DNA from: Deltaproteobacteria bacterium
GTDB taxonomy: Bacteria > Desulfobacterota > Syntrophia > Syntrophales > UBA2185
DNA: 49,615 bases
Assembly: GCA_037143735.1 (NCBI GenBank)
Contig: JBAWYD010000001.1
Span: forward strand, 1 to 49,615
Direction: 5' to 3'
The position numbers and the translations under genes are program-made. Shown here piece after piece: positions 3,072-31,006 of the stretch (the stretch's first letter is position 1; the number at the start of each line of letters is the position of its first letter). The notes beneath the pieces were generated by a model. The model did no database searches. It was not told the DNA's origin and saw only the letters and a list, made by a program, of their open reading frames with translations.

Positions 3072-4658
3072 TTACATCTCCAGTTGGGTAACTGAGATGA
3101 TATTGGGCAGACTCTGAAGCTTGTTGAGAACATCTTCGGATACCATGGTGTCCGTCGTCAGGACAACGAGGGCCTGTTTGTCAACCGCTTCCCGGCTCAG
3201 ATGAAGTCTTGCGATATTGACCTTGTTGGCCCCGAGGGTGTTTCCGATGTTGCCGATGACGCCCGGTTTGTCGTAGTTTGACACAACGAGCATGTGGCCT
3301 TCCGGAATGATCTCGACGGTAAATTTGTTGATCCTGACGATTCTCGGTTCCTGTCTTCCGAAAATGGTGCCCGCCGTACAGCTCTTTCCCTCGGATGTCT
3401 TGACGGTGAGGGATATCATGCTTGTGTAATCCCCGACTTCGCTGCTTCTTGACTCGACAACCCTGATCCCCCGATCTCTGGCAATGACGGGTGCATTGAT
3501 GTAGTTGACGTTTTCATTGAGAATGGGTGTCAGCAATCCCTTAAGGAGCGAGATGGTGATGGGCGCCACATTGTAATTCAGGATTTCACCGCTGTATTCC
3601 ACGATGACCTCCTTGATGCCTCCCTTGATGATCTGGGCATCGAATCTCCCCAGTTTTTCCGCAAGATTAACGTAGGGCTGGATAACGCTCAGAAGCTCCG
3701 CGCTGACCGACGGGAAATTAACGGCGTTTCTGATTTCCCCTTTTGTCAGGAAACCGGCAATCTGTTCGGCGATGGCGATGGCCACGTTGATCTGGGCCTC
3801 ATCGGTTGAGGCCCCCAGGTGGGGCGTGCAGATGACGTTTTCGAGAGCCACGAGATCCGTGTTTTTTGTCGGCTCTTCTTCAAAGACGTCGAGGGCCGCG
3901 CCTGCAACTTTTCCGGAGACAAGGGCGTCATAAAGATCCTTCTCGACGACAATACCCCCCCGTGCGCAGTTGATGATGAAAACGCCCTTTTTCATTTTCG
4001 CAAAGGCTGCGGCGTTGATCAGTCCTTTCGTGTCTTTTGTGCTGGGTGTGTGAACGGTGATGAAATCGGACTTTTTCAAAAGGTCGTCGATGGCGACAAG
4101 GGTAATTCCCATTTTCTCGGCGGCGGTGGGGGAAATGAAAGGATCATAGGCAATCACATTCATCTTCAGTCCCAGCGCCCGATCGGCGACAATGGTCCCG
4201 ACACGACCGATGCCGATGATGCCGAGGGTCTTGTTAAAATACTCGTTGCCCATGAACTTGTTTTTTTCCCACTTTCCCGCTTTCATGGACGCCGTCGCCT
4301 GGGGGATCTTTCTGGCAAGGGAGAGCATCATGGCAATGGCGTGTTCCCCCGTGGTGATGGTGTTCCCCCCCGGGGTGTTCATGACGACGATTCCCCGCTT
4401 GCTTGCTGCCACTATGTCCACATTGTCGAGGCCGATGCCGGCCCTTCCGATGACGGTAAGCTTTTCAGCGCAGTCGATAATTTCCCTGGTGACCTTGGTT
4501 GCACTCCTTATGGCCAGCCCGTCATAGTCTTTAATGACGCCCTTGAGTTCATCCGGTGTGAGGTTCGTCATGACATCCACCTCGATTCCCGGTGTATTCT
4601 TAAATATTTCTATACCTTCTACAGACAGGGTATCGCTCACAAGAACTTTTTTTATCAT
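3072..4658 (-). CDS. serA: D-3-phosphoglycerate dehydrogenase (long form with C-terminal ACT domain)
   Basis: 528 aa. NAD-binding 'GIIGIGRVG', the 'GRAGIGLDNVD' motif and catalytic 'TPHLGAST' are present. The C-terminal ~80 aa look ACT-like. Confidence 0.95.
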   Translation of the reverse strand: MIKKVLVSDTLSVEGIEIFKNTPGIEVDVMTNLTPDELKGVIKDYDGLAIRSATKVTREIIDCAEKLTVIGRAGIGLDNVDIVAASKRGIVVMNTPGGNTITTGEHAIAMMLSLARKIPQATASMKAGKWEKNKFMGNEYFNKTLGIIGIGRVGTIVADRALGLKMNVIAYDPFISPTAAEKMGITLVAIDDLLKKSDFITVHTPSTKDTKGLINAAAFAKMKKGVFIINCARGGIVVEKDLYDALVSGKVAGAALDVFEEEPTKNTDLVALENVICTPHLGASTDEAQINVAIAIAEQIAGFLTKGEIRNAVNFPSVSAELLSVIQPYVNLAEKLGRFDAQIIKGGIKEVIVEYSGEILNYNVAPITISLLKGLLTPILNENVNYINAPVIARDRGIRVVESRSSEVGDYTSMISLTVKTSEGKSCTAGTIFGRQEPRIVRINKFTVEIIPEGHMLVVSNYDKPGVIGNIGNTLGANKVNIARLHLSREAVDKQALVVLTTDTMVSEDVLNKLQSLPNIISVTQLEM

Positions 4659-23487: not shown

Positions 23488-23643
23488 TTAGTAGTCTATG
23501 TGCAGTTTGGATAGAATATCCGGTGAGTCTCGCTTTACAATGTGGTAAGCCACCTTCTCATTACAATATGCCACAAAATCACCCGCCTCCAACGCTTCTT
23601 TCAAGACGGTGTAGTAGTCAACCGCTGGAGTAATAATCAACAC
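23488..23643 (-). pseudogene. Truncated tandem paralog of the 23692..23979 ORF (51 codons from a GTG; could be a gene remnant or a small functional ORF)
   Basis: Hand translation gives VLIITPAVDYYTVLKEALEAGDFVAYCNEKVAYHIVKRDSPDILSKLHIDY. This aligns with the C-terminal half of the upstream ORF (FAVAYYVILDDALSNGDFVLYNSGPPPTYRVVRKGQPDIMS). It is in the same frame and follows two in-frame stops. Confidence 0.4.
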
Positions 23644-23691
23644 TCTATGAGAAGCTCAACCGGTATGCTGGAGCTTCCGAGTAGAAGTGAT

Positions 23692-23979
23692 TTACTGTTT
23701 CATGGACATGATGTCTGGCTGTCCTTTTCTCACAACGCGATATGTCGGTGGTGGTCCGCTATTGTATAGAACGAAGTCACCATTTGATAAAGCATCATCC
23801 AGTATCACATAATAAGCAACCGCAAACTGATGTTCCCTTAATTTGGATTGTATCTCTTCAATGGTAACAAATTTGTCCAAACTTGGATCAATTTTAGAAA
23901 TAATCATTGAATGTGGTTTTGGTTTAGTTTCTTCTAATGCCGCCAAGAACTCTCCTTTTGTAAAAACCTTGCCTGTCAA
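23692..23979 (-). CDS. Small hypothetical protein (95 aa, TTG start), last gene of the candidate defence operon
   Basis: Open frame co-directional with the operon and 96 nt downstream of the glycosylase gene. No recognisable motif. A truncated paralog lies immediately downstream. Confidence 0.55.
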   Translation of the reverse strand: MTGKVFTKGEFLAALEETKPKPHSMIISKIDPSLDKFVTIEEIQSKLREHQFAVAYYVILDDALSNGDFVLYNSGPPPTYRVVRKGQPDIMSMKQ

Positions 23980-24075
23980 TATATCGCCCCCCGCTTTAAC
24001 ATTATTGATAACTAATCGAAATCATTCATTTTCATCGAGGTTGGCTGGTTGTGTATATCAGGAATCTATTATCTT

Positions 24076-24855
24076 TTACAATTTCTTATAAAAACAATGC
24101 TTTACAACAAGACATTTACTGCATGTTGGCACATTTTCAAGACAGATACCCTGGGGAAGTCCAATGTCCATATCATCTTCGATATGCCCAAATTTCACCA
24201 TGATAATGTCTACATATCTATGGCTATAGCCGGTTTCTTCAGCAAATTTGTTGCAGACTTGCCGTGCGTCATCAAGGCAAGTTTCATTTCTGACCAATTG
24301 CAGGCGGCTCAATACCCTCATAATAACCCTGTCAGGTTTTATCGTTTTTGCCCCGATATCCGTGAGAAAATGGTGCACTGTCGCCTCGCCCATATAAGAG
24401 AAGGTATGTCTAAGGATCGTTGCCGCCTTTTCGAGATCTTCCGGGCTTCGGTTAAAATTCAAAGACCCCAGATAGTTTTTAAAGGAACCATGCCGCTTCG
24501 TTATGGCCTCTACGATTTTTGCGTTTGAAATGGCTGACCTTATTTTAGCGGGATGCCTGATCATCTTTGAATCTGTCAGGATCTTATTGAAATCGGACTC
24601 ATCATATCGGGCAACTGTTTTGTAGTCTGGGAAATATCCTTTGATTGTATCGATCTTGCTCGTTACGGTCTTGCTTTTCATGCCTGCGTAAAAAGGGATG
24701 TAGGCAAGAACCTGATAAAGGTAATTGTCATCGAAGGCTTCAAAGTCAAAGTGCTTGAACCGCTCGAATCTGCTGAGCACTGTCTCACGCGAATAATTTG
24801 AATTTTTAATGATGGTTTCCAGAATCAAATCGAATATATTTCTATGCTTTCCCAT
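24076..24855 (-). CDS. HhH-superfamily DNA glycosylase (Tag/EndoIII-like, MpgII-type) with a C-terminal [4Fe-4S] cluster loop
   Basis: 'AGMKSKTV...FPDYKTVARYDESDFNKILTDSKMIRHPAKIRSAISNAKIV...HGSFKNYL' aligns with E. coli Tag ('AGLSWITV...FDPVKVAAM...AGIIRHRGKIQAIIGNARAY...FADFVW'). An HhH-plus-Asp segment 'MGEATVHHFLTDIGAKTIKPDRVIMRV' is present. The C-terminal 'CLENVPTCSKCLVVKHC' is exactly C-X6-C-X2-C-X5-C, as in EndoIII and MutY. I prefer the ATG at 24855 (AGAGGA RBS) over 24924. Confidence 0.8.
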   Translation of the reverse strand: MGKHRNIFDLILETIIKNSNYSRETVLSRFERFKHFDFEAFDDNYLYQVLAYIPFYAGMKSKTVTSKIDTIKGYFPDYKTVARYDESDFNKILTDSKMIRHPAKIRSAISNAKIVEAITKRHGSFKNYLGSLNFNRSPEDLEKAATILRHTFSYMGEATVHHFLTDIGAKTIKPDRVIMRVLSRLQLVRNETCLDDARQVCNKFAEETGYSHRYVDIIMVKFGHIEDDMDIGLPQGICLENVPTCSKCLVVKHCFYKKL

Positions 24856-24901
24856 TTTAATCCTCTTATCCCAGTAATATTGTATAATTGACCATGATGT
24901 T

Positions 24902-25843
24902 TCAGGGGGACGTTGAAAAACCATCCCGTGTGACTTTGTTCGATCCTTGAATCAATATCTCGTCAAGCGGATCATAAGCAGCCGTTTCCTTTTGATAATC
25001 TTTCCAGCGTTTTTCATAAACAGTCTGCGCCAAAAGTGATACATCCGTCGTTCTGCCTTCATCATCCGACTCATCAAGACCGTAGTCGTAACGAATTCCA
25101 CCGCGTTCAGTCAGAATATACCGGGCATGGGGTTTGTCACCGTCTGGTTTTTCCTTCCAACGGAAAACACGCAATTGCGAACCTTCCGGTAGGATTGGAG
25201 ACAAATAATTCTGGCAACGCTCCTGCCAGATATCCAGAGGAGGAGGGGGCTTTTTTATCGATTCTTTATACTCGGCATGAAGTTCACAACGGCGGGGCTT
25301 GTTGTTTTCGAAGGTAAAATTGATGATATGGGAAAATGTATCCCGGAATCTCGGTAATTCCGGATTGAAATGAGGATCAATCATCATGATTTCTTTACTG
25401 AAATTTAAAAGCGATCTTGCGCAAACCGCAAGATCGTATGCCTTTCGCGGCACTATTTTTTCCCTCGGGACATTCCATAGCTCGATTGTTTCATCAATGT
25501 CTTCCGCAATCAGGACTTTTTCGTGATTTCTCGGATTTTCACATGAGATAATGGCGTGAAAAAATTTAATGTCATGTTGATTTTCGGCGTTTTCGAGCCA
25601 GCCTCGTTCTGAAGAGTAATTCCTGTTGGAATTTATCAGCTTATGCTCCATATTGCGCAGCTTTTCAACAACGGCCGTCCTTTTCACTCCCTCTATAATA
25701 CAGTGGCTTATCGCCTCTTTCTGCCATCTTCGGGGGAAACGGGATATCAGTCTGCCATGGTGAACACCGCACTGGTCAATCACATATTTGAACGTTGGCC
25801 AGTTGTTGAGACAAGCGGGGTCCAGGGCAAATTCATGAATCAT
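24902..25843 (-). CDS. Hypothetical protein (313 aa), translationally coupled to the upstream ATPase
   Basis: The ATG at 25843 overlaps the ATPase stop codon as ATGA (the ORF-track start is 25888). I found no Walker, HNH, TIR, Toprim or PD-(D/E)XK motif. Candidate conserved strings are 'IMMIDPHFNP' and 'PHARYILTERGGIRYDYGLD'. Confidence 0.7.
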   Translation of the reverse strand: MIHEFALDPACLNNWPTFKYVIDQCGVHHGRLISRFPRRWQKEAISHCIIEGVKRTAVVEKLRNMEHKLINSNRNYSSERGWLENAENQHDIKFFHAIISCENPRNHEKVLIAEDIDETIELWNVPREKIVPRKAYDLAVCARSLLNFSKEIMMIDPHFNPELPRFRDTFSHIINFTFENNKPRRCELHAEYKESIKKPPPPLDIWQERCQNYLSPILPEGSQLRVFRWKEKPDGDKPHARYILTERGGIRYDYGLDESDDEGRTTDVSLLAQTVYEKRWKDYQKETAAYDPLDEILIQGSNKVTRDGFSTSP

Positions 25844-27675
25844 CAGAAAAGCTCCTTTTCGCGTTCGGTGAAAAAGCCTTCCGGCCATTTATCGATAAAA
25901 TCCCCATCCTCGGAAATGCGCAATTCCATGAGTTCCGTGCCGTGTTCCGTCGGCTTGGCATAAATGACAGCCACATCCTCTGGCTTGAGGGGTGGCTGGC
26001 CTTCCTCCAGTTCGCCGTTGGTCGTCTCCCGGATACGCCGGAGCAGGCGCAGCAGGAGATGCTCACTATGGGTTTCAATTATATATTGACATGGTTTCTT
26101 TTTCGCTCCTTCGATAAAGAAATCGGCCAATTCTGTCTGTAGACGCGGGTGAATGTGGATCTCTGGTTGCTCGATAAACTTGTAGCTCCATTCAGAACGA
26201 TCATAGTATTGCCCATTCCACTCATAGCGATCGGAAATCAGGCCGTCCACGAGTATAGGCAGGATCTGGCTTATGCCGAAGCCGACATCCTTGATGCAGG
26301 ATTCAATGCCTGTTTCCGTGCTAATGAGAACTATTTCGTAATAATCCCTGACCACAGGACGAACATTGATCTCGTAGCCTGCTTCCAGGCGCTTGAGCCA
26401 TGCGTTGACCTTCTCCAGAATGTCCGGCCTGGCAATTAGAATGTCCATCGTGTTTTCCCCTTTGCTGCCCACAGTTGCCGGCGCTGTTCCCGAATAGGCA
26501 TACATACGCTCTGGCATGGCCCGAAGAGGTCCGATATAGGTCGTCAAGGCCAGCATGTCCTGAAAACACCTAGAGGCGAGAAGAACCGCCGTGTAAGGAA
26601 GATAAAAACAGTGTGCTTCATCAGTCTCGCGCGCATCGGAAGCTCGCTGTTCTGTAAGCGCGCCAGCCTGTGATACCGCATGGATGAACCTGTACTCCTC
26701 GCCCGTAACCAATTTCTGGGGAAAACAATTACCCAGCGCGATAAGGCGATCAAAATATCCGTAATTATTGTGAAATACTGCTACCATCTCCATTAAATCA
26801 CTGTCAGACAAGTCCTGTATACTCTTTTGCAAAGATTCCAAAAAGGATAGGTAGCGCTCGCATTTTTTTATTTCCTCCTTGGCCTGGATATTCTCCAATG
26901 TATTTTCTTCCGCCTTTGCTTCCTTTGCCCTTGCTTTGGCAAGACGTTCTCTCAAAGGAGTCATCTCCTCTGTCAGGCCCATATCAGATGGTTCCTCTCC
27001 TTCTTCTTGTAGTCTTCGATTACTATCTGCGTTATAATCCCAGCGTGCCTTGACGCATGGATGATCCAGATTTAACTCTGTACGACACAACATATTTGAT
27101 GTTTTTAGTTTTTCCAGCTCCTCTTTCGCTTGTTTATAATTGGAATTTTTGATGGCTTCGGGGTCATTTTTTTCAACAAATTCTTGGATGATACTTTCCC
27201 ACATAGAGATTGCACTCTGCATCTCCGGGATGTCGTCCAGCAGGCGGTATGCTGTTACCACTTCTCCTCCGACCCGGTCGGAGATATCAATGGCCTTGAC
27301 ACGGATGTTGCGTTGCCTGTCCAAGGCAAAGCGCATACCAAGGGCAATCGTTTGTGTAGGGTTCCATACCCACGCCAAGTCATCTTCAGCCAGCGAAGAT
27401 GCATCCATAGCGATACTGAACCCAAACTCTTTCTGTTCGTTGTGGCCGTTGATAAATTCTCGGTAGGTGCCGGCATCGAGTAACTGTCCCCTGGGAATCA
27501 ACGCGCCTTGCTTGCGCCCCCCTTCATCAAGTGTCTGTTTGAACAACAGCAGCGCCTGCATAAGAGAGCTTTTCCCGGAACTATTTGGTCCATAAAGAAG
27601 AGTGATTGGCTTTAATGGGATGCGCTGCATCTTGCCGAAGGATTTGAAATTTTCGATGCCGATTTCTGTAAACAT
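25843..27675 (-). CDS. ABC/SMC-like ATPase of the AAA15/AAA21 type with a central coiled-coil insertion and a DUF3696-like C-terminal tail
   Basis: Walker A 'LYGPNSSGKSS', signature-like 'GFGISQILPIL', Walker B 'FIEQPEIHIHP', H-loop 'IIETHSEHLL'. Residues about 170-300 are charged heptad-like sequence ('RERLAKARAKEAKAEENTLENIQAKEEIKK'). The tail reads 'DGDFIDKWPEGFFTEREKELF'. AGGAGA RBS lies 6 nt upstream. Confidence 0.85.
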   Translation of the reverse strand: MFTEIGIENFKSFGKMQRIPLKPITLLYGPNSSGKSSLMQALLLFKQTLDEGGRKQGALIPRGQLLDAGTYREFINGHNEQKEFGFSIAMDASSLAEDDLAWVWNPTQTIALGMRFALDRQRNIRVKAIDISDRVGGEVVTAYRLLDDIPEMQSAISMWESIIQEFVEKNDPEAIKNSNYKQAKEELEKLKTSNMLCRTELNLDHPCVKARWDYNADSNRRLQEEGEEPSDMGLTEEMTPLRERLAKARAKEAKAEENTLENIQAKEEIKKCERYLSFLESLQKSIQDLSDSDLMEMVAVFHNNYGYFDRLIALGNCFPQKLVTGEEYRFIHAVSQAGALTEQRASDARETDEAHCFYLPYTAVLLASRCFQDMLALTTYIGPLRAMPERMYAYSGTAPATVGSKGENTMDILIARPDILEKVNAWLKRLEAGYEINVRPVVRDYYEIVLISTETGIESCIKDVGFGISQILPILVDGLISDRYEWNGQYYDRSEWSYKFIEQPEIHIHPRLQTELADFFIEGAKKKPCQYIIETHSEHLLLRLLRRIRETTNGELEEGQPPLKPEDVAVIYAKPTEHGTELMELRISEDGDFIDKWPEGFFTEREKELF

Positions 27676-27690
27676 GATGGTTCTCCTGAT

Positions 27691-27852
27691 TTATTGGCCT
27701 TTTTTCACCGCAGTAGCTTCATCCTCTTCAACTTTCTTTGATAAAGCCATTCTTACATAGGTTGACATGTCACAGTTAAACCTCTCAGCCTGTTTCTGAA
27801 TTCTTTCCTTAAATGCGTGGTTCGCTCTGATTATCATTACTGAAGTCTTCAT
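27691..27852 (-). CDS. Ribbon-helix-helix (CopG/Arc-like) DNA-binding protein, first gene of the operon
   Basis: 'MKTSVMIIRANHAFKERIQKQAERFNCDMSTYVRMALSKK' fits the beta-alpha-alpha RHH pattern. An AGGA RBS lies 7 nt upstream of the ATG at 27852. Alternative longer starts are 27945 (ATG) and 27981 (TTG). Confidence 0.65.
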   Translation of the reverse strand: MKTSVMIIRANHAFKERIQKQAERFNCDMSTYVRMALSKKVEEDEATAVKKGQ

Positions 27853-27988
27853 GCTTCTTTCCTTTGAGGGCAATTTGACATGATGGTTGTGCAAGCTGTG
27901 AGACAAAGCATTAAAATGAGCAACATTCCTGTAATGATCTTCCATGACATTTCCTGCCTCCCTTGATATGTATTTACTCAAGGGCTAG

Positions 27989-28004
27989 AGCAGGTTCTAT
28001 GCCA
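27989..28004 (-). promoter_or_regulatory. Candidate sigma-54 (-24/-12) promoter
   Basis: The minus strand reads TGGCAT-AGAAC-CTGCT against the consensus TGGCAC-N5-TTGCW. The GG and GC dinucleotides have the correct 10-nt separation. It sits in the intergenic region upstream of the RHH/ATPase operon and 1.4 kb from a sigma-54 activator gene. Confidence 0.55.
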
Positions 28005-28080
28005 GGTACATGTATCTCATATAATGTCATGATATTGTTAGATTATTAAATTTGTGCGTTTTTTATAGCTGAAAGAAAAC

Positions 28081-28094
28081 GTAATATATATTAC
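28081..28094. promoter_or_regulatory. Perfect 14-bp palindrome, candidate enhancer (UAS)/operator
   Basis: GTAATATATATTAC is its own reverse complement. It lies about 77 bp upstream of the -24 element, a typical distance for bEBP binding sites. Confidence 0.3.
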
Positions 28095-28149
28095 TATAAC
28101 AGTAAACATCGTTACCTTAAAACGCCTTCAGATATGTTTGTTCCAGCCG

Positions 28150-29397
28150 TCAGGCAAGCCAGTTCCACGGAATGGCGATTACATGAGAGTGGAGCCAACG
28201 GATTTCTGAACCGGTGTATAGAAGGACGCCCCTGACAGTTTGGGGATATGCTTCGAGAAAGAGAAGAAGATTCTTGTAGTCGTTATATCCGGGATTGTCG
28301 GTCATTTTGACTTCGAACGCCAGTAGTTTTCGTCCGTGTTCAATAACGAAATCGACCTCCTTGTTGCCCGTTGTTTGCCAGAAGTATATTTTCCCCTTGG
28401 GGGTCATTAATTCCGTCAAAATCCTCAGGTGCAAGAATATCATGGTTTCAAAGAAATTTCCAAGTTCTCTTCCCTTGCGCAGGGCATCCTCATCGAAGTA
28501 GCCTGACAGATAGACGCTCAATGCGGGATCAACAAAATACAGTTTGGGAGTTTTTTTTATCTGACTGGTGCGATTTACGTAAAAAGCCGGCACCCTGGAG
28601 ACGATGTTCGATATCTCCATAAGCCTAAGGTAACGAAATACAGTGGACTGGCTAACGCCCGTGTCTCTCGCCACGTCGGTCTGTTTCATCATGCAGCCGG
28701 TGCGCAGGGCGAATGATTCCACCACCTTTCTGAAATCAATCAGAGAATCGACCTGAGATAACTGACGCAAGTCTCTTTCCAGATATGTCCTGACGTATCC
28801 CTCCCACCAGAGAGATATCTGCTTGGGATTGTCCAGAGTCAGAAGCGGCGGCATAAAGCCCCGCAAAATCAGCGGCAGCGGATCTGTGGCATCTTTTTTC
28901 TGTTCTTTGATTTCAAGGTCATCGTTCCATAAGTTCAGAAAATTCTGAAATGCATCTTCCTTTCCTGTCATTTCTCCGTGCGACATCGGCAGGAGTTCAA
29001 AATAAACCGCTCTTCCCGCAAGTGTTTCACTTACCTTTTCCATCAACAGGAGATTTGCAGAGCCTGATATGAGGAATCTCAACCTTCTTTGGCTTGAATC
29101 AACGGCAAGTTTTATGGCGGAAAAGACTTCGGGCAATCTCTGTGCTTCGTCGATGATGATTTTTTCCGCCCCTTTCCAGAGGATTTGAGGATCGCTTTTC
29201 GCCTGCTGAAGAATTCTATGATCGTCAAAGCTGACATATCTGAAGTCGGGAAACTCGTTTTGAAGAAGGGTGCTTTTGCCTACTTGTCTTGCGCCCGTTA
29301 AAACCACAACAGGAAATATTTCAATAGCTGCGGCTACTTCCTTAGCCATCCATCTTTTTTTGTAAATCAATTCAGGTGCTGAATAGTTTTCATTCAT
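28150..29397 (-). CDS. AAA+ ATPase with DUF4143-type C-terminal region (COG1373-like) carrying a PD-(D/E)XK-like motif
   Basis: Walker A 'LTGARQVGKST', Walker B 'IIIDEAQ', a wHTH-like 'VSQSTVFRYLRLME', and C-terminal 'EVDFVIEHGRKLLAFEVK'. Confidence 0.85.
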   Translation of the reverse strand: MNENYSAPELIYKKRWMAKEVAAAIEIFPVVVLTGARQVGKSTLLQNEFPDFRYVSFDDHRILQQAKSDPQILWKGAEKIIIDEAQRLPEVFSAIKLAVDSSQRRLRFLISGSANLLLMEKVSETLAGRAVYFELLPMSHGEMTGKEDAFQNFLNLWNDDLEIKEQKKDATDPLPLILRGFMPPLLTLDNPKQISLWWEGYVRTYLERDLRQLSQVDSLIDFRKVVESFALRTGCMMKQTDVARDTGVSQSTVFRYLRLMEISNIVSRVPAFYVNRTSQIKKTPKLYFVDPALSVYLSGYFDEDALRKGRELGNFFETMIFLHLRILTELMTPKGKIYFWQTTGNKEVDFVIEHGRKLLAFEVKMTDNPGYNDYKNLLLFLEAYPQTVRGVLLYTGSEIRWLHSHVIAIPWNWLA

Positions 29398-29452: not shown

Positions 29453-31006
29453 TCACATCCCAAACTTTTCCTTCGCCCGCTTGCGGAAGGTATGGGGTTT
29501 GATTTTGAGGAGTCGGGCAGCGGCTTCCCGGTTGCCGTCTTTCATTTTGATGGCTTCTTCATAGCAGGACTTTTCAAGATCGTGCAGATATGCGTCGATG
29601 TCCAGACCTTCGGGCGGGACGGAGGTTTGCCGGAAAGGCGTAGAGGGCGTATCTTTAGAAGACAGGAATGAAGGTGATGTTTCCGGAGGCAGGTCTGCGT
29701 CTCTGATAACATTGCCTTTTGATATAACAAATGCCCGCTCCATAGCGTTCTCGAGTTCCCGAATGTTGCCCGGCCAGGCGTAATCAAGGATTTGTTTCAT
29801 TGCTTCCCGGCTGAGCTGCTTCTTCTGACGGTAACGATGGTTATGGTTGTTCAAAAAATGCTCCACGAGGAAAGGAATATCTTCTTTTCTGTCGCGTAAG
29901 GGCGGCATCTGAATATCGATGACCTTCAGCCGGTAATACAAGTCTTCCCGGAATTTGCCTGCGGTGACGAACCCGGCCAGATCCCGGTTGGTGGCGGCGA
30001 TAACCCGCACATCCGTCTTTATGGGGTTCAAGCCGCCGACGCGCGTGATCTCATAATCCTGCAGAACCCGGAGGATCTTGGCCTGGGCGGGCAGGGGCAT
30101 ATCGCCTATTTCGTCGAGGAAAATGGTTCCTTTGTTAGCCAGTTCGAATTTGCCCTTCTTCTGCTGAATCGCACCGGTAAACGCGCCCTTTTCATGGCCG
30201 AAAAGTTCGCTTTCCACGAGGGTTTCCGGAATGGCCGCGCAGTTAACCACAATGAAAGGCTCAGTTTTTCTCGCACTGTTGAAATGAACCGCACGGGCGA
30301 TGAGTTCCTTGCCCGTACCGGTTTCCCCTTGAATTATGACGGCAGAGTCATACCGGGAAGCAGCCCTGACCACATCAATTACCTTCTCCAGGGCAGGGCT
30401 TTTACCGATCATCCGGAGATCGGAAAATTCGCGAACAATGTCGTCCCTTTCCGCCTCTAACTGTTCTTTTCTCAATAAGGTTACGACATAATCAAGATTC
30501 TCCAGTGCAGGGGACGAAATCAGGGGAAAGTTATCGAGAGGTAAATGGATTTCGGAGACAGCCTTTTGACGGGGCCTCAAAAACCTGGGCGGTGTGATTT
30601 TGAGCAGAGTCGCCGGAACCAGTCCTGACCGGGAAAGGAGAAACCAGATTGTCTGCATCTGCGGCGTCCCGGATGCCGTGGCAATCCAGTAAGATGGCTG
30701 CTCATTTTTGTGCTTGCCCATGATATCCTGACAGAGCCTGTTCATATGGAGAAACAGGTTTTCATAGTCCGTAGGATCAGAAATGTCGATGTTTAGTATG
30801 CTGGTTTCGACGTCATTCACGCGTCCGGCGATCTCATCCTGAAGGTTGTGGGCATTGGTCAGGGTATTCGGGGTTGTAAAAATATATATCCACTGGAAAT
30901 GCCGCTCCCCGAGAAGCGTCAGCACGGGGCCTTCGGAATTGATGCCCTGGATGATTTCGAGGTTGAATGGATCCCGGTTGCCGGCAAAGGTGAGCAGTAT
31001 ATCCAT
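29453..31006 (-). CDS. Sigma-54-dependent transcriptional activator with an RtcR-like CARF N-terminal domain
   Basis: AAA+ core 'GETGTGKE', '[15 protein letters not shown]' (GAFTGA) and 'IFLDEIGDM'. C-terminal Fis-type HTH '[19 protein letters not shown]'. The N-terminal ~170 aa, including '[19 protein letters not shown]', align with 'YLIHITTGTHVAQICWFLL' of E. coli RtcR. Confidence 0.85.

Follow-up and report, generated by a model that had tools for sequence, protein, structure and literature searches.

Gene content of the locus

The window analyzed here, a stretch of 49,615 nucleotides on contig JBAWYD010000001.1 of a Deltaproteobacteria bacterium, contains a group of co-directional genes on the minus strand that had been predicted from the sequence to form an undescribed defence operon. 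The first gene encodes a ribbon-helix-helix (RHH) protein (27691-27852), with 53 aa from the ATG at 27852 or possibly 84 aa from an alternative in-frame ATG at 27945. It is followed by the genes for a 610-aa NsnB-like ABC ATPase (25843-27675), a 313-aa NsnC-like putative effector designated X313 (24902-25843), and a Tag-like glycosylase (24076-24855, 259 aa from MGKHRN). Two small open reading frames (ORFs) complete the set, an orphan of 95 aa (23692-23979) and one of 51 aa (23488-23643).

The original prediction described five co-directional genes, and the ORF coordinates (23488-27852) agree with this arrangement and add the 51-aa ORF as a sixth. The 15-nt gap between the RHH and ATPase genes was found with a ribosome-binding site (AGGAG) inside it, as predicted, and the predicted 46-nt gap between the X313 and glycosylase genes was also present and holds AAGAGGA. 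The ATPase and X313 genes had been reported to overlap by ATGA; the junction is instead TGATG, in which the stop and start codons share 1 nt. By its tight spacing, ribosome-binding sites, and 1-nt stop/start overlap, the gene set forms an operon. Terminator-like matches within the unit were no more frequent than in shuffled sequence, and shuffles scored equally well in the scans for sigma-70 promoters and terminators.

The segment had also been described as markedly AT-richer than its neighbors. The contrast with the flanks is real, but it is modest and patchy, and the proposed values of 23-37% against 60% GC were not reproduced. The GC content is 0.40-0.42 across the glycosylase, small-ORF, and RHH genes and 0.45-0.51 across the X313 and ATPase genes, versus 0.48-0.55 in the flanks.

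The ATPase and X313

The proteins were scanned against the Pfam, NCBIfam, and PADLOC libraries. The assignment of the ATPase to the AAA15/21 type was confirmed by Pfam matches to AAA_15 (1.8e-27) and AAA_21, together with a C-terminal DUF3696 helix (1.6e-5). Its best PADLOC match was NsnB of Menshen (4.9e-57, residues 1-609), and further matches were obtained to PDC-M55A (1e-53) and HEC-03B (8.4e-51). Menshen is said to consist of NsnA, NsnB, and NsnC, reportedly as set out by Millman in 2022. The window ATPase carries a large insert and is longer than the 345-position NsnB model by about 265 residues.

In a survey of 59 non-identical ATPase homologues, the Walker A pattern GxNSxGKS[ST] was kept and the sequence ETHSEH was invariant, while the signature was GxGxxQ (mostly GxGxSQ) and the Q-loop position read GP(L)R. 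Walker B was EQPExHxHP in all of the twelve commonest variants, which cover 56 of the 59 ATPases, and lacks the catalytic Glu (residues 501-510 in the window protein). The EQ of this Walker B naturally mirrors the E-to-Q 'ATP-trap' mutation that is introduced into ABC ATPases in experiments, which suggests that ATP binding, and not turnover, would drive the ATPase as a switch.

X313 had been described as motif-less. It indeed matched nothing in Pfam, NCBIfam, or PADLOC, but the confident AlphaFold2 model (pLDDT 93) of this well-conserved family (about 193 clusters) has a fold that can be recognized, with a putative PIN-like N-domain (residues ~1-115) and a C-domain of the phospholipase-D (PLD) superfamily (~125-300). 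In Foldseek searches, the C-terminal half matched FAM83 (4urj, 2.5e-5) among PLD matches of 2.5e-5 to 1e-3, as well as PLD3/4, NucT, Zucchini, BfiI, and SauUSI. The N-terminal half gave a single weak match to a PIN structure (1o4w; E 0.035, probability 0.90, 113 aligned columns) and none to the sequence-level PIN models of Pfam and PADLOC. Within the C-domain, D156 (at least 90% conserved) follows beta2 (151-155), and an invariant H239-x-R241 stands before beta5 (241-245). The PB-PLD1/MIT_C-like effector of some NsnC proteins has an Asp/Glu after beta2 and HDR before beta5 (PMC12065111). Since the D156/HxR topology fits this description, X313 appears to follow the plan of NsnC, with a putative PIN-like N-domain joined to an effector C-domain, the likeness being one of modelled architecture and topology.

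Distribution of the ATPase-X313 pair

Related loci, labelled individually by L-numbers, were searched with a 12-sequence alignment and gathered from one genome per species, from metagenome contigs, and by look-ups of encoding contigs. Relatives of X313 were found at 103 loci, corresponding to 73 lineages at 90% identity. The ATPase gene lies immediately upstream of the X313 gene wherever the contig permits (about 73 lineages in more than 10 phyla), including members of Desulfobacterota, Nitrospirota, Planctomycetota, Myxococcota, Acidobacteriota, Bacteroidota, Omnitrophota, Firmicutes, and Proteobacteria.

The pair occurs in two main contexts. In the distant relatives (X313 25-40% identical), it comes after hsdR-hsdM-hsdS genes; such type I restriction-modification (R-M) genes adjoin the pair in 16 lineages, mostly with the pair directly downstream of hsdS. 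In the clade of the window (X313 40-96% identical), a gene for an RtcR-like activator is located upstream. Other neighbors include genes for OLD, AAA_13, KwaB, AbiE, Fic, and RhuM proteins, integrases, and toxin-antitoxin (TA) genes. The proposed reading as a defence operon thus holds up, with co-localization of the ATPase and X313 in essentially all of the approximately 73 lineages and defence-type contexts throughout.

The whole pair is duplicated in tandem in two loci. L011 (1510-8951) has two ATPase-X pairs, and in L050 (4016-11290) another ATPase, another X-like protein with an HQRY motif, and a distant UDG-like gene come after ATPase-X313.

The glycosylase and the exchangeable slot after X313

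The prediction of an Fe-S DNA glycosylase was supported by matches to Pfam Adenine_glyco (1.9e-16, at the N-terminus) and PADLOC OGG (1e-15). The protein contains a helix-hairpin-helix (HhH) element followed by an invariant Asp in KPDRVIMR, and its C-terminal C-x6-C-x2-C-x5-C has the spacing of an EndoIII/MutY-type [4Fe-4S] cluster. This Tag-like family is tiny, with 35 clusters among 5.8 billion. Solo copies were found beside recG with TA genes and DUF4143, in a recombinase/ParA element, at a prophage end, and in a NOV_C / PRTase-CE / NERD-UvrD island.

The predicted co-occurrence of ATPase, X313, and glycosylase held in part: the ATPase accompanies X313 in essentially all of the lineages, but the glycosylase family of the window was found in only five lineages besides its own, and unrelated glycosylases stand in its place elsewhere. 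In the loci of the activator (sigma-54) group, including the window, this third slot directly after X313 holds Tag-like HhH/[4Fe-4S] proteins in those five lineages (L039; L032-35 and L088; L040-42; L058; and L057, with a remnant only, at 4295-4453). In eight lineages it is occupied by c24, a family of about 285 aa with 69 clusters among 5.8 billion. The AlphaFold2 model of c24 (pLDDT 90) has a TDG/MUG fold, since its top-50 Foldseek matches all belong to the UDG superfamily (TDG 4e-5, MUG 2e-4), and the invariant FKNPHPDS stands where the GINPG catalytic-Asn motif sits. A short HhH-GPD protein (PADLOC OGG 8e-5, AVDIH motif) fills the slot in two lineages, and an OB-fold protein with the HhH motif GVGPK...VID in two others. 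The call of the latter as an HhH glycosylase (L045/L048) is a call from this motif, because the hhalign comparison with the Tag-like family was uninformative with such shallow alignments; the hhalign comparison of the Tag-like family with the L007-type protein was uninformative for the same reason. Three further lineages carry c36, of about 260 aa (L002:9044-9847, L003:3624-4379, and L046:1495-2310), and seven lineages of the sigma-54 clade have no third gene. The slot is therefore a cassette site enriched for glycosylases. In contrast, none of these families was found in the 33 non-sigma-54 lineages with enough downstream sequence (0/33).

c36 had no match in Pfam (E <= 10), PADLOC, or the sequences of the PDB, and PDB profile and sequence searches gave nothing significant for c24, c36, the L045-type protein, and the UDG-like protein of L050. 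Judged by eye, the strand-end motifs of c36 (VAVVSH, FTWDE, CGESN, and NPLHD) resemble those of EEP- or metallophosphatase-type nucleases.

The boundary of the exchange is best seen between L046 (1456-3516) and L047 (4287-5572), in which X313 is 92% identical and the DNA is about 90% identical up to the X313 stop codon. From there, L046 continues with c36 and L047 with c24, and homology returns 1.3-2 kb further on. The slot states are interleaved on the X313 tree, indicating that swaps are frequent. Junctions between X313 and c24 are start/stop overlaps or gaps of a few nucleotides, and those between X313 and the Tag-like glycosylase are gaps of 46 to 220 nt, sometimes with an RHH gene in between. 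The Tag-like glycosylase is 72-78% identical between loci, versus 45-62% for X313, and this higher conservation suggests that the glycosylase moves independently. Solo copies of c24 exist as well; in Syntrophus aciditrophicus the neighbors are a resolvase, a PLDc_2 nuclease, and a TIR protein, and elsewhere they are R-M remnants. A chance adjacency of the glycosylase was rejected in view of its recurrence, the non-homologous replacements, and the cassette boundary at the X313 stop codon.

The RHH protein, with weak Pfam matches to NikA-like and DUF6290 families, has homologues only in loci with a Tag-like glycosylase or its remnant, plus L060, where the contig ends before the slot. Its gene is located upstream of the ATPase gene in the window, L057, and L060 and flanks the glycosylase gene in L032-35, L040-42, and L088; none was found in the c24-, c36-, and HhH-GPD-type loci or in the solo glycosylase loci. 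Because the homologues are confined to loci of the Tag-like type, the RHH gene appears to belong to the glycosylase cassette and not to the core.

The small protein named as an operon member does not accompany the operon in other loci. For the 95-aa ORF, there was no family match in Pfam, NCBIfam, or PADLOC, no homologue in the 103 related loci, and only four homologues among 1.84 billion representatives; it is lineage-specific, and its membership in the system is doubtful. The 51-aa ORF is a truncated tandem paralogue of its C-terminal half (BLASTP, 45% identity over 40 aa, E 2e-10). A fixed five-gene system, as originally envisaged, was rejected on these counts, and the conserved core comprises two genes, with an exchangeable glycosylase (together with RHH) that also occurs alone and a small lineage-specific protein.

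Further observations were made on individual slots and their surroundings. At L032 (8133-8923), the DNA homology to the window glycosylase extends upstream of the called 201-aa gene and the reading frame is interrupted, so this copy is N-terminally truncated or frameshifted. One or two genes past the third slot, a DEAD/Helicase_C protein of about 875 aa with a Cys-rich C-terminus (BrxH/SngC/DpdF-like in PADLOC; YprA/DUF1998-like) recurs in L005 (10374-13013), L006, L036-38, L044, L054-57, and L113, often preceded by a small Zn-ribbon ORF (…KICKRCFREF…CPECREELG…).

Activator, promoter, and putative activator sites

The account of five genes overlooked a regulatory layer, which consists of a CARF activator, its predicted sites, and a sigma-54 promoter. 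The activator gene (29453-31006, minus strand) encodes an RtcR-like protein with CARF, sigma-54 AAA+, and Fis HTH domains according to Pfam (Sigma54_activat 1.3e-71, RtcR 1.4e-09, and HTH_8) and PADLOC (RtcR_PspF2 CARF_AAA_HTH, 2e-136). Close homologues (phmmer E 1e-220 to 1e-244) are encoded upstream of the pair in L002, L005, L032, L040, L041, L044, L045, L050, L054, and L113, and other loci carry more distant homologues upstream of ATPase-X313. RtcR proper controls a damage-responsive RNA repair operon (PMC7790460). No RtcA or RtcB domain was detected among the island genes, and the regulator is RtcR-like, not RtcR.

A predicted sigma-54 (-24/-12) promoter was located at 27989-28004 on the minus strand; its sequence, TGGCATAGAACCTGCT, is the sole match to TGGCAY-N5-YYGCT in the window. 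Activator-linked loci carry near-identical elements 20-140 nt before the ATPase ORF, and R-M-linked loci do not. Two putative upstream activator sites precede it on the same strand, GTAACGATGTTTAC (28102-28115, 111 nt upstream of the promoter), with one mismatch to GTAAY-N4-RTTAC, and the palindrome GTAATATATATTAC (28081-28094, 90 nt upstream), which is the sole exact GTAAY-N4-RTTAC in the window (0.04 expected). The 21-bp spacing of the two sites is the same in L002, L003, L032, L040, L047, L050, and L100. Overall, the palindrome was present, mostly as a 21-bp-spaced pair, at 12 of the 17 distinct sigma-54 promoters of related loci, and its density 30-200 nt upstream of the promoters was 7.6/kb versus 0.095/kb elsewhere in the loci, an enrichment of about 80-fold.

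The locus therefore combines a sigma-54 promoter and conserved putative activator sites with an adjacent CARF activator. These elements have the classical layout of an enhancer-binding-protein regulon, and the operon very probably stays off unless a trigger reaches the CARF activator.

Comparison with named defence systems

The original prediction found no match to a named system. However, the ATPase is NsnB-like and HEC-03-like, and X313 appears to share the plan of Menshen NsnC, an inactive PIN-like domain with a PLD-like domain. Menshen and HEC-03 are both experimentally validated defences (PMC12065111; bioRxiv 10.1101/2024.01.29.577857). NsnB shows departures in Walker B (DE to EN), the Q-loop (Q to R), and the signature (SGG to GxG), and NsnC carries an N-terminal inactive PIN-like domain and a C-terminal effector, one class of which is PB-PLD1 (Li et al., NAR 2025, PMC12065111). 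The window ATPase shares with NsnB its best PADLOC match, the DUF3696 tail, the missing Walker-B catalytic Glu, the Q-loop Arg, and the GxG signature, whereas Walker B is EN in NsnB and EQ in the family of the window. X313 likewise resembles NsnC in the predicted pairing of a PIN-like N-domain with an effector C-domain of PB-PLD1/MIT_C-like topology. Unlike Menshen, the window operon has an ATPase with the large insert, an X313 that matches no Menshen hidden Markov model (HMM), an RtcR-like activator with a sigma-54 promoter, and a glycosylase slot after the effector. As for NsnA (ParB-DUF262 plus ParBDB), no DUF262 was present in any gene of the 23.4-32.3 kb block or in the loci checked; in nine distant loci, the genes upstream of the ATPase encode AAA_13, OLD, KwaB, DUF2130, HDOD, and other proteins, and none encodes DUF262 or NsnA. 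Membership in Menshen was rejected on the ground that NsnA/DUF262 was found neither in the window block nor upstream of the ATPase in these nine loci. The system is thus a conserved NsnB-like/NsnC-like pair without NsnA, in defence-island contexts.

HEC-03 is a two-gene defence of an ABC ATPase and a PIN protein in which both genes are required; it occurs embedded in other defence operons (Hma, BREX, and R-M), and its expression is toxic (Payne et al., bioRxiv 10.1101/2024.01.29.577857). The likeness to HEC-03 lies in the HEC-03B HMM match of the window ATPase and in the type I R-M genes that adjoin relatives of the pair in 16 lineages. The partner in HEC-03 is a VapC-like PIN protein, whereas X313 is a predicted fusion of PIN-like and PLD-like domains without a PIN HMM match, and the window copy is not embedded in R-M genes, having sigma-54 control and a glycosylase instead.

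Among defence glycosylases, Brig1 (PMC11078745) and the Dag and UDG-like enzymes (bioRxiv 10.1101/2025.10.29.685425) defend as single genes. The glycosylases of the slot resemble them in belonging to the HhH (window) or UDG (c24) superfamily, in their AT-rich, mobile, defence-island contexts, and in the existence of solo copies. They differ from Brig1 and Dag in standing in an operon, behind the ATPase-X313 pair and an inducible promoter, and the window enzyme further differs in being Tag-like, with a [4Fe-4S]-type Cys cluster and an RHH companion.

RtcR homologues also head the 'superoperons' of CoCoNuT type IV restriction defence (Bell et al., eLife 2024, PMC11090510). Here too, co-directional defence genes have a CARF-AAA+-HTH homologue of RtcR at their head, the arrays include YprA-like DEAD helicases as well as type I R-M genes, and the window operon would fit a second-line defence induced by RNA-damage signals. 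In contrast to CoCoNuT, the promoter and activator sites are identified explicitly here, and the cargo is the NsnB/NsnC-like pair with glycosylases; the genes of the 23.4-32.3 kb block contain no McrB/McrC and no CoCoNuT-type domains (CnuB/CnuC or CnuH).

Proposed function and alternative explanations

We consider it probable (about 0.6) that the locus is an inducible anti-phage, or more generally anti-invader, operon of separable modules, which would be co-regulated and probably synergistic, not an obligate three-protein machine. Co-regulated modules were taken as the default because both the core pair and the glycosylases are also found by themselves, and the anti-phage function is suggested by analogy with Menshen and HEC-03. 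In this operon, the RtcR-like activator would bind the pair of GTAAC-N4-GTTAC sites that precede the sigma-54 promoter by about 90 and 111 nt and, once its CARF domain received a signal, would turn on the RHH, ATPase, X313, and glycosylase genes. By analogy with RtcR, the signal might consist of a cyclic oligonucleotide or of RNA fragments that end in a cyclic phosphate. The two-gene core would be related to Menshen NsnB-NsnC and to HEC-03 and would lack the NsnA sensor. The ATPase is probably an ATP-binding switch, since its catalytic Walker-B glutamate is missing, and by analogy its DUF3696 tail could grip the PIN-like N-domain of X313 and gate a PLD-type phosphodiesterase or nuclease; the AlphaFold3 models of Li et al. 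are the basis for such gating through DUF3696 (PMC12065111). The glycosylase would most likely excise a modified or unusual base from invading DNA, in the manner of the single-gene Dag and Brig1.

Several points weigh against this interpretation. The anti-phage role, a nuclease function of the PLD-like domain, the base removed by the glycosylase, and the ligand of the CARF domain are all inferences, and the lineage counts are phylogenetically non-independent. The PIN-like call for the X313 N-domain comes from one weak Foldseek match (E 0.035), and the kinship of X313 to NsnC or the HEC-03 partners is architectural and not sequence-based, as no PADLOC model matches X313. The PLD-like domain is taken as a nuclease by analogy, and its MIT_C relatives are not proven nucleases. 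In addition, the slot may hold c36, a family without an assigned fold (three lineages), or no gene at all (seven sigma-54-clade lineages), and a damage-type regulator that governs glycosylases, an ABC ATPase, and a nuclease could equally be part of a repair operon.

A more integrated arrangement is possible, although we hold it clearly less probable than separable modules. The glycosylase would then replace NsnA as the specificity or sensor subunit and excise a modified phage base, and the ATPase would recognize the abasic site or the complex of the glycosylase with its DNA product and then set free or activate the PLD nuclease for DNA cleavage, so that a swap of the glycosylase would retarget the system. 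In favor of such an obligate coupling are the loss of NsnA, the DNA sensor of Menshen, the presence of four to five unrelated glycosylase families in one slot with none there in the R-M-embedded clade, the exact coincidence of the swap boundary with the X313 stop codon, and the start/stop overlaps or few-nt gaps at X313-c24 junctions; the PLD superfamily also includes Tdp1-type end processors along with nucleases. However, the core pair is complete without a glycosylase in at least 33 lineages, and the validated HEC-03 requires two genes only (bioRxiv 10.1101/2024.01.29.577857). The Tag-like and c24 families both occur solo in defence islands or prophages, and Dag, Brig1, and UDG-like glycosylases defend singly (PMC11078745; bioRxiv 10.1101/2025.10.29.685425). 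The wider gaps before the Tag-like glycosylase, sometimes with an intervening RHH gene, and its higher identity between loci than that of X313, which suggests independent horizontal movement, also argue against an obligate machine.

It is unlikely that the genes constitute a stress-induced DNA or nucleic-acid repair operon, in which an RtcR-type regulator would sense nucleic-acid damage and induce a base-excision glycosylase, an SMC/RecF-like ATPase, and a phosphodiesterase for lesions of the cell's own DNA. The slot enzymes do have classical repair folds (Tag, TDG/MUG, and EndoIII-like), the operon adjoins rmuC, and RtcR proper governs a damage-responsive RNA repair operon (PMC7790460). Against this stand a patchy, AT-rich, and mobile distribution, the tiny size of the families (35 and 69 clusters among 5.8 billion), the swapping of cassettes, and a sister clade that sits inside type I R-M operons and defence islands. 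Moreover, the ATPase is homologous to validated defence ATPases, TA modules and PDC-S01 lie within the same block, and housekeeping glycosylases are core genes, unlike the slot families (bioRxiv 10.1101/2025.10.29.685425). Even more improbable is a TA-like addiction module that stabilizes a genomic island, with RHH keeping a toxic glycosylase or PLD nuclease in check as its antitoxin or repressor. The toxicity of HEC-03 expression (bioRxiv 10.1101/2024.01.29.577857), the abundance of TA genes around the loci, and the exclusive association of RHH with the Tag-like glycosylase would fit this role, but RHH is absent from the c24-, c36-, HhH-GPD-type, and solo glycosylase loci, the promoter is of the activator-dependent sigma-54 type and not an autorepressed sigma-70 TA promoter, and a 610-aa ABC ATPase has no TA counterpart.

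An ABC ATPase with a PIN-like-domain effector is already known from Menshen and HEC-03. The X313 family, the loss of NsnA, the mapped sigma-54/CARF circuit, and the glycosylase slot were not found in the literature searched. Read as an inducible operon of separable modules, the locus represents a widespread branch of Menshen/HEC-03 without NsnA and with a PIN-like plus PLD-like effector family, which current defence finders would miss because this family has no Pfam, NCBIfam, or PADLOC entry. The CARF enhancer-binding protein, the paired sites, and the -24/-12 promoter make a second-line, signal-induced defence of the RtcR type directly testable. The slot itself is recombination-prone, enriched for glycosylases, and filled by at least two unrelated superfamilies, and it could serve as a practical source for mining new glycosylase specificities. 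Defence glycosylases have so far been known only as single genes, and their repeated capture behind an ATPase-nuclease pair suggests synergy or a real coupling. Synergy could arise because abasic sites together with a nuclease turn base excision into DNA breakage, and either outcome would be relevant to bacterial defence against phages with hypermodified DNA. Should the locus prove, as we regard only as a tentative option, to perform restriction coupled to base excision, with exchangeable glycosylases (Tag-like, TDG/MUG-like, and HhH-GPD) reading different phage base modifications and creating abasic sites, the ATPase sensing these sites and licensing the PLD nuclease, and CARF arming by RNA-damage or cyclic-nucleotide alarm signals of first-line defences, no multi-component immune system guided by glycosylases would precede it, and it would also be the first sigma-54/CARF-gated immune system with mapped promoter and activator sites.

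Neighboring genes

The proposed accessory block extending to 32.3 kb, with TA genes, a DUF4143 ATPase, and a CARF regulator, was confirmed by Pfam, PADLOC, and NCBIfam matches. On one side of the locus lie groEL, a TPR gene, and rmuC, and on the other side ileS. An Rfam scan of 21-33 kb returned zero RNA families.

The AAA_14/DUF4143 ATPase gene (28150-29397, minus strand; Pfam DUF4143 4e-38 and AAA_14 1.5e-27; PADLOC single-gene candidate PDC-S01 6e-103) occupies the interval that separates the activator gene from the putative binding sites of the activator. It is not present at the corresponding position in related loci and is accordingly regarded as a neighbor, not as a conserved part. DUF4143 genes were also observed near the activator gene in L041 and near a solo glycosylase gene in L104. 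Directly upstream of the activator gene, the minus-strand segment 31021-32287 encodes a PIN toxin (TIGR00305-type), an RHH/RelB-like antitoxin, and a Zincin_1 metallopeptidase. In L032 and L113, PIN/Phd or ParE TA pairs are located between the activator and ATPase genes.

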